Part shown: piece after piece, positions 4,384-4,552 of the stretch
Position numbering within the stretch: position 1 is the stretch's first letter
Layout: every line of letters begins with the position of its first letter
Assembly (NCBI RefSeq): GCF_058153355.1
Contig: NZ_CM177019.1
Length of the DNA stretch: 64,000 nucleotides
Reading direction: 5' to 3' (one strand)
The notes under the pieces: model-generated
Seen by the model: only the letters and a program-made list of their open reading frames with translations
Told to the model about the DNA's origin: nothing
Databases searched by the model: none
Position numbers and translations under genes: made by a program

Positions 4384-4552
4384 AGGGCGCGCATATTAAC
4401 TTTGTAACGTCATAGAGTCAAAGAAAAAGGCAGCCTGTGGTTGCCTTTTGCCAATAATTCGCACACATTGCGGGTTACTGCTTTATTTTCGTTCAGTGCT
4501 GATAACGAACATCAACCTGCAAAACGAAGCGCATAGTTTAAAATGGCTATCA
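4384..4552. ncRNA. sraB: possible SraB small RNA locus in the yceD-yceF intergenic region
   Basis: Placement by memory of the K-12 map only; no structure analysis done; strand not determined. Confidence 0.25.

Follow-up and report, generated by a model that had tools for sequence, protein, structure and literature searches.

SraB is a small RNA of Escherichia coli whose gene has reportedly been annotated since 2001 and is said to be present in every K-12 gene table as well as in Rfam. In the K-12 record, sraB (b4418; Rfam RF00077; synonyms pke20 and psrD) extends from 1146589 to 1146757 and is situated between two protein genes: yceF (1146011–1146595), which is on the opposite strand and overlaps sraB by 7 nt, and yceD, which runs from 1146794. 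Re-analysis of the 5′-end data sets of Thomason and Ettwiller placed the K-12 sraB start at 1146649, 60 nt inside the annotated gene, and yceF starts at 1146625 and 1146700 (PMC7967276). The 3′ end of sraB was found by Term-seq at 1146757 in two conditions and was classed as primary (PMC7815308). The Salmonella homolog of SraB has been reported at about 99 nt.

SraB is strongly enriched with ProQ in co-immunoprecipitation experiments in both Salmonella and E. coli. The 169-nt RNA, which was also studied by HDX and SAXS, forms a 1:1 complex with the protein and contacts its FinO domain, linker, and C-terminal domain (PMC5393179). For binding, the FinO domain requires a terminator hairpin (at least 2 bp) followed by four or more U in the 3′ oligo-U tail; RNAs specific to ProQ are further distinguished by an A-rich 5′ flank, which pairs with this tail and disfavors Hfq (PMC7367173). 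Other RNAs of the ProQ class, including the cspE 3′ UTR, the malM 3′ UTR, and SibB, resemble SraB in being highly structured and in possessing at least 4 U and an A-rich flank (PMC7367173, PMC5393179). SraB differs from them in its greater length and in its additional contacts with the ProQ linker and C-terminal domain, and from the Sib RNAs in having no assigned target. In fact, no SraB target was named in the literature searched.

Levels of SraB drop in the course of growth and do not follow Hfq binding. In an hfq mutant of Klebsiella pneumoniae, the abundance of the RNA is down more than 3-fold, so ProQ may not be its sole partner. In Salmonella, ppGpp represses few RNAs as strongly as it does SraB, and in one replication-inhibition data set SraB is up about 5-fold. 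The only SraB phenotype found, cited second-hand, is that of a S. Enteritidis mutant, which reportedly survives less well in egg albumen; this could reflect a polar effect on yceF or yceD-rpmF.

Two further systems invite comparison. The first comprises 5′ leaders that undergo termination and also serve as small RNAs (PMC7815308), which share with the sraB locus a promoter, a short structured RNA, a terminator, and a co-oriented gene. The likeness is incomplete, since no sensing element or antiterminator was found at sraB, and a promoter-like element separates its terminator from the gene. The second is an unnamed short element of Klebsiella, Serratia, and Proteus that occupies the same position as sraB. 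It shares with sraB the TAAACT hexamer, both 3′ hairpins, and the invariant stretch between the U-tract and the yceD ATG, but is without about 57 nt (hairpin 2 plus a linker) found in SraB.

The locus described here lies in a 64,000-nt stretch of DNA that was analyzed as a whole and is referred to as the window. An Rfam scan of the whole window located the sraB gene at 4588→4420 on the minus strand, with a score of 209.8 bits (E 6.8e-44) relative to a curated gathering score of 130 bits, and with a match spanning model positions 1–169 of the 169 in RF00077. The annotated long form (169 nt; 4420–4588, minus strand) is identical to MG1655 sraB (b4418) at 168 of 169 positions, and the region aligns without gaps. 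The lone mismatch falls in the hairpin 2 loop (window 4507), where the RNA strand has C here and T in K-12. A few synonymous-type differences from K-12 also occur in the yceF codons that hold the -35 region of the long form.

The neighbors of sraB, its overlap with yceF, its distance from yceD, and its terminator are the same as in K-12. At its 5′ end, the gene runs 7 nt into yceF; at its 3′ end, 36 nt separate it from the yceD start codon. On one side, yceF (4582–5166, plus strand) encodes a Maf-family m7GTP pyrophosphatase (TIGR00172, 249.5 bits), with an ATG at 4582–4584 that corresponds to the K-12 start. On the other, yceD (3862–4383, minus strand) encodes a 23S rRNA accumulation protein (NCBIfam NF008395, 296.5 bits; K-12 annotation) and is followed in its operon by the gene for L32 (rpmF; 3637–3810, minus strand) and then that for PlsX (2486–3556, minus strand), with FabH-sized and FabD-sized ORFs further left. 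The orientation of sraB is that of yceD, and yceF is divergent; this yceF-sraB-yceD layout is common to 18 loci of other species. A 401-nt query covering the locus matched 5,424 of 5,426 complete E. coli genomes, with a median of once per genome.

It is virtually certain, then, that 4588→4420 of the window is sraB, the known E. coli small RNA gene. The gene is an ordinary feature of the genome and a member of RF00077 on every criterion tested. A chance resemblance or a decayed remnant, with no sraB gene at this site, is refuted by the E value over the full length of the model, by the near-identity to K-12, and by the intact promoter, terminator, and flanks, and its probability is negligible.

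A first-pass annotation of the same DNA had placed an SraB of about 170 nt between yceD and yceF, upstream of a yceD-rpmF-plsX-fab operon. The full-length match, the near-identity to K-12, and the shared gene geometry bear out the location, the length is 169 nt, and the operon is as stated in so far as YceD, L32, and PlsX are assigned and FabH/FabD-sized ORFs lie beyond them. Alignment to K-12 sraB, which the annotation had itself proposed as a means of refutation, upheld the call. The boundaries fared less well. The interval given, 4384–4552, covers 133 of the 169 nt of sraB, but it is offset by 36 nt, taking in the 36-nt spacer outside SraB (4384–4419) and omitting the 5′ 36 nt (4553–4588), and it came with no strand, which is minus. 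Likewise, the description of the region as intergenic is apt for most of the gene, which falls in the yceF-yceD gap, but sraB also overlaps the yceF start codon. The interval ended near 4552 on account of an upstream in-frame yceF ATG at 4543. This ATG, 39 nt before 4582, is likewise taken as the yceF start in an ORF listing and in a 207-aa metagenome gene call (L002). The resulting N-terminal extension is probably an artefact, since it would lie inside sraB and upstream of the published yceF start at 4552.

Over the surrounding sequence, the strain is not K-12-like. Of the 5,424 E. coli genomes matched, only 32 are at least 99% identical to 4300–4700 over the 401 nt; identity peaks at 99.8%, in one isolate from cattle and one from animal-source food (MFDS1019527 and MFDS1022581).

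Loci from other species were obtained by two routes. An exact-protein look-up with L32 yielded E. coli-type and Salmonella-type loci, while a DNA-pattern scan with CCCGCNATGTGNGCGAANNNNTGGC of one genome per species returned 41 loci, comprising 18 true sraB loci and 23 chance matches in unrelated, mostly G+C-rich genomes. The pattern forces part of hairpin 3 only; the terminator and the spacer are not ascertained by it. The 18 true loci, each of which exceeds the Rfam gathering threshold, derive from Escherichia, Salmonella, and Citrobacter, plus one MAG labelled Raoultella. This MAG (L046) carries a sraB region of the Citrobacter braakii type, which suggests mis-binning or mislabelling. As the pattern proved too strict for Klebsiella, the loci of K. 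pneumoniae, S. marcescens, and P. mirabilis were taken from chromosomes mis-filed in PLSDB, where several 4–5 Mb "plasmids" (CP125156.1, NZ_OL790812.1, NZ_OL790696.1, and others) are whole chromosomes.

Transferred to the window, the K-12 transcript ends delimit a form of SraB considerably shorter than the annotated gene. The RNA-seq start corresponds to 4528 and the Term-seq end to 4420, which yields a 109-nt short form (4420–4528, minus strand) that folds into three clean hairpins. By analogy with K-12, this short form is likely the main species in the present strain, and the main transcript is probably shorter than the 169-nt gene of the annotation. A -10 hexamer, TAAACT (4535–4540, minus strand), precedes the T4528 start by 7 nt, with a G+C-rich ATGCGC between the two, and is conserved in all six genera compared (Escherichia, Salmonella, Citrobacter, Klebsiella, Serratia, and Proteus). 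The short form also has the more distinct fold: its MFE is -33.1 kcal/mol, with a z-score of -2.86, and only 1 of 200 shuffled sequences was equally good, whereas the 169-nt form has a z-score of -1.92.

The long form has a -10-like TAAAAT of its own (4594–4599, minus strand), read from the sequence, with the T4588 start 6 nt downstream and a poor match at the -35 position (CGGCGC). The long form could be the functional species, acting as a cis-antisense RNA that would occlude the yceF start codon and ribosome-binding site: its complementarity to the yceF 5′ UTR and the first 7 coding nt of that gene is complete, and its TAAAAT is at the right distance from its 5′ end. The TAAAAT is confined to Escherichia, however, with AAGGAT or AAGAAT in its place in Salmonella and Citrobacter. 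Together with the RNA-seq sets re-analyzed, every one of which puts the start 60 nt downstream, the size of about 99 nt for the Salmonella homolog, and the less distinct fold, this makes an antisense role for the long form quite improbable. The short form, by comparison, has a 52-nt overlap with yceF, and only with those mRNAs initiated at window 4477.

The two published yceF starts correspond to 4552 and 4477 on the plus strand. A -10-like TAAAAT at 4539–4544 (plus strand; read from the sequence) lies 8 nt before the first of these and overlaps the TAAACT of sraB by 2 bp on the opposite strand, such that the published starts of the two genes (4528 and 4552) are 24 bp apart. From this arrangement, we infer that 4535–4544 may be a back-to-back bidirectional promoter shared by sraB and yceF.

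A pattern scan of 4200–4800 for promoters and terminators flagged neither a sraB promoter nor the sraB terminator, although it did flag a plus-strand hairpin that is the mere complement of hairpin 3. Having missed the promoters and terminator of sraB, the scan was counted neither for nor against the gene. In the case of the terminator, the miss is explained by a tail that lies partly within the stem.

The structural elements of SraB differ in how well they are supported. Hairpin 1 (SraB nt 18–40; 4549–4571, minus strand) comes from the Rfam structure line, is present in the long form only, and is complementary to the yceF 5′ UTR. It displays a single covarying pair, A-U to C-G between Escherichia and other genera, and RNAalifold did not recover it from an alignment of Escherichia, Salmonella, and Citrobacter; on these grounds it was not counted as supported.

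Hairpin 2 (nt 61–101; 4488–4528, minus strand) is kept by RNAalifold and is an element of drifting sequence in which pairing is retained. Six of its pairs have changed on both sides, and many G-U pairs occur. In sequence it varies to the same degree as synonymous sites: its mean pairwise identity is 0.67, as compared with 0.55 and 0.83 at the third codon positions of yceF and yceD, respectively. On the opposite strand each G-U pair turns into an A-C mismatch, which places the selection on the SraB strand; we infer that hairpin 2 is maintained for its structure there, and its role is probably to protect the 5′ end.

Hairpin 3 (nt 109–137; 4452–4480, minus strand) has an inner stem of CGCA/UGCG and a loop of AUGUG, and it appears in the folds of both forms. 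Along with the terminator and the 36-nt spacer, it is 0.96–1.0 identical among Escherichia, Salmonella, and Citrobacter. In Serratia and Proteus, its closing pair has switched from A-U to U-A and the loops are different. The linker of SraB has the sequence GAAUUAUUGG.

Small ORFs within SraB were considered and judged unlikely. One of 13 residues is confined to the long form, a second, MFVISTERK, lies in the variable hairpin 2, and a third, of 16 codons (MCANYWQKATTGCLFL), begins in the loop of hairpin 3 (4418–4468, minus strand). All are without a Shine-Dalgarno sequence, and the promoter and hairpins account for their conservation. The UGA stop of the 16-codon ORF straddles the 3′ end of SraB, which makes the ORF complete on readthrough transcripts only, and it is probably meaningless.

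The intrinsic terminator (4420–4449, minus strand) has the sequence AAAAGGCA-ACC-ACA-GGC-UGCCUUUU, with a tail of UCUUU; it is recovered in both folds and coincides with the K-12 Term-seq end. In the folds of the long and short forms alike, it is a G+C-containing hairpin of 8+2 bp with UUUUUCUUU after it, and its A-rich 5′ flank pairs with the U-tract (GGC-AAAA-GGCA ... UGCC-UUUU; AAAA-GGCA...UGCC-UUUUUCUUU). The upper stem is altered, yet still pairs, in Serratia and Proteus. The sequence and fold of the window's SraB therefore show both hallmarks of a ProQ ligand: a terminator hairpin followed by at least 4 U, and the A-rich flank. Given the behavior of its counterparts in K-12 and Salmonella, SraB of this strain is very probably bound by ProQ. 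When the identity of the gene, its biogenesis, and its ProQ class are taken jointly, and its possible action by base pairing is set aside, the account given here can be held with high confidence.

Beyond the terminator lies a short block of highly conserved DNA. A promoter-like sequence, TTGACT-17 nt-TAATAT (4393–4421, minus strand; outside the SraB RNA), was picked up by pattern scan and is a candidate only: it is the sole sigma-70-like match in 4200–4800, where 0.7 would be expected by chance, and so is not significant alone. Its TTGACT overlaps the last bases of SraB, i.e., the U-tract of the terminator. The TAATAT is followed by GCGCGCCCT and then by the yceD ATG (4383–4381), before which inspection of the sequence revealed no Shine-Dalgarno. 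From the U-tract to beyond the yceD ATG, the sequence is nearly invariant from Escherichia to Proteus and is more conserved than the adjoining coding sequence. As read from its sequence, the 4381–4421 block resembles a stringent, rRNA-like promoter, from which the yceD mRNA would be leaderless or nearly so.

This geometry raises the possibility that SraB is a functionless by-product of a symmetric -10 region that serves yceF, and that its terminator is an insulator shielding the yceD promoter. The 2-bp overlap of -10 hexamers on opposite strands, with starts 24 bp apart, fits such a reading, as does a terminator U-tract that abuts or overlaps the -35-like TTGACT; it also accords with the lack of a known target and with weak transcription of yceF alongside abundant SraB. 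The compensatory changes in hairpins 2 and 3 weaken it. An insulator would have no use for hairpin 2, which nevertheless holds its pairing through six such changes and strand-specific G-U pairs, and hairpin 3 has persisted in three families, among which it shows a compensatory switch. Moreover, SraB is abundant, stable, and specifically bound by ProQ. A by-product of this kind is improbable.

The loci of Klebsiella, Serratia, and Proteus indicate which parts of SraB are ancestral. The yceF-yceD gap is 141 nt in these genera versus 198 nt, and what is left in them is the TAAACT hexamer, hairpin 3, and the terminator, from which the conserved core of the family can be defined as an RNA of ~50 nt with two hairpins. 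Hairpin 2 is absent from all three genera, two of which (Serratia and Proteus) belong to other families; this is most simply explained if it was inserted in the Escherichia-Salmonella-Citrobacter lineage. The short homologs (753–864 of locus L053, 801–912 of L054, and 801–912 of L055, respectively) score 70, 24, and 23 bits against the RF00077 gathering score of 130 bits, and would not be annotated as SraB. RF00077 thus under-detects the family outside Escherichia, Salmonella, and Citrobacter, to whose form the model is tuned.

The explanation ranked first for SraB is base pairing assisted by ProQ. According to this scheme, the short form would arise from the rightward arm of the bidirectional promoter (-10 TAAACT, 4540–4535), and its functional end would be the conserved 3′ module made up of hairpin 3 and the terminator. 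ProQ would bind the terminator module and stabilize the RNA, which would then base-pair with its targets, either in trans or in cis, in the latter case with yceF transcripts initiated at 4477. Base pairing as the mode of action of SraB, in preference to a leader or by-product role, is put forward tentatively, with a likelihood a little short of even. Many terminated fragments without a known function are ProQ ligands as well. In addition, the near-invariant 36-nt link to yceD across three families fits a role in cis at least as well, as do the repression by ppGpp in Salmonella and the falling level with growth.

Ranked second is a reading in which SraB is mainly the prematurely terminated leader of yceD-rpmF(-plsX-fab). 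Transcripts from TAAACT would either stop at the terminator, and so yield SraB, or read through into yceD; the terminator would act as a valve in cis, and the released RNA would be secondary. This reading bears on the last, base-pairing step of the preferred explanation only. The architecture of a leader is present, in that TAAACT (4540–4535), the terminator (4449–4420), and the co-oriented yceD ATG (4383) follow one another in order. SraB is on the same strand as yceD and 36 nt upstream of it, a spacing that, like the sequence, is nearly invariant from Escherichia to Proteus, and the ancestral element, with its -10 box and ~50 nt containing two hairpins, is typical of a short leader. The G+C-rich ATGCGC discriminator, the ppGpp repression, and the growth-linked fall in level are traits of ribosomal-protein operon promoters. 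Two promoters, yceDp1 and yceDp2, have been reported upstream of yceD, and about 60% of plsX transcripts originate at promoters further upstream; the lack of a Shine-Dalgarno sequence before yceD is likewise in keeping with a leader.

A regulated leader would be expected to show an alternative pairing, and the fold of the readthrough RNA offers none that is convincing. The search for an antiterminator, or for pairing between SraB and the start of yceD, turned up only a long-range pairing in the MFE structure, which is of low confidence: the readthrough fold is no better than shuffled sequences (z -1.18), and the pairing is missing from the centroid structure. In the Term-seq classification, moreover, the 3′ end is primary for sraB, and the separate, conserved TTGACT/TAATAT element could feed yceD without any readthrough. 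On balance, a terminated leader as the main identity of SraB is doubtful, though it is the chief competitor of the preferred explanation.

Rather less likely is a stricter version, suggested by the sequence, in which SraB is the released yceD-rpmF leader from a bidirectional promoter shared with yceF and is not a free-standing trans regulator at all. If this were true, the ancestral form would be a two-hairpin RNA of ~50 nt conserved across the Enterobacterales, with a 57-nt 5′ hairpin gained later in the Escherichia-Salmonella-Citrobacter lineage. The TTGACT-17-TAATAT-GCGCGCCCT-ATG block would be a stringent, rRNA-like promoter for a leaderless or nearly leaderless yceD mRNA, and termination of SraB and initiation of yceD would compete on the same DNA.

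The value of the present analysis is modest. It provides a corrected strand and corrected coordinates for sraB, indicates that the main transcript is probably 109 nt, and shows that the Rfam model misses the short homologs that define the core. The tight coupling of the terminator to yceD, as seen in the sequence, may also be a lead to a local role, namely control of the operon for L32/YceD and lipid synthesis.

Several other features of the window came to light during the analysis. REP-like palindromes lie between yceF and rluC at 5176–5246 (plus strand), consisting of GCCGGATGC...GCATCCGGC together with GGCCTGATGCGGCGT/ACGCCTTATCAGGCC at 5215–5246. An RNase E 5′ UTR element (Rfam rne5, 260 bits) occupies 6449–6785 (plus strand), directly upstream of the rne ORF (6810–9995). 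Rfam matches above the gathering score were also obtained for the PyrC leader (28500–28549, plus strand; 69 bits), ES056 (49255–49346, plus strand; 120 bits), and Ysr251 (56766–56959, plus strand; 183 bits), and a match to naRNA4/CssrE (58102–58179, minus strand) was barely over its threshold, at 63 bits versus 59.5. The sole tRNA gene in the window is that for tRNA-Ser (anticodon GGA), at 54947–55034 on the plus strand.
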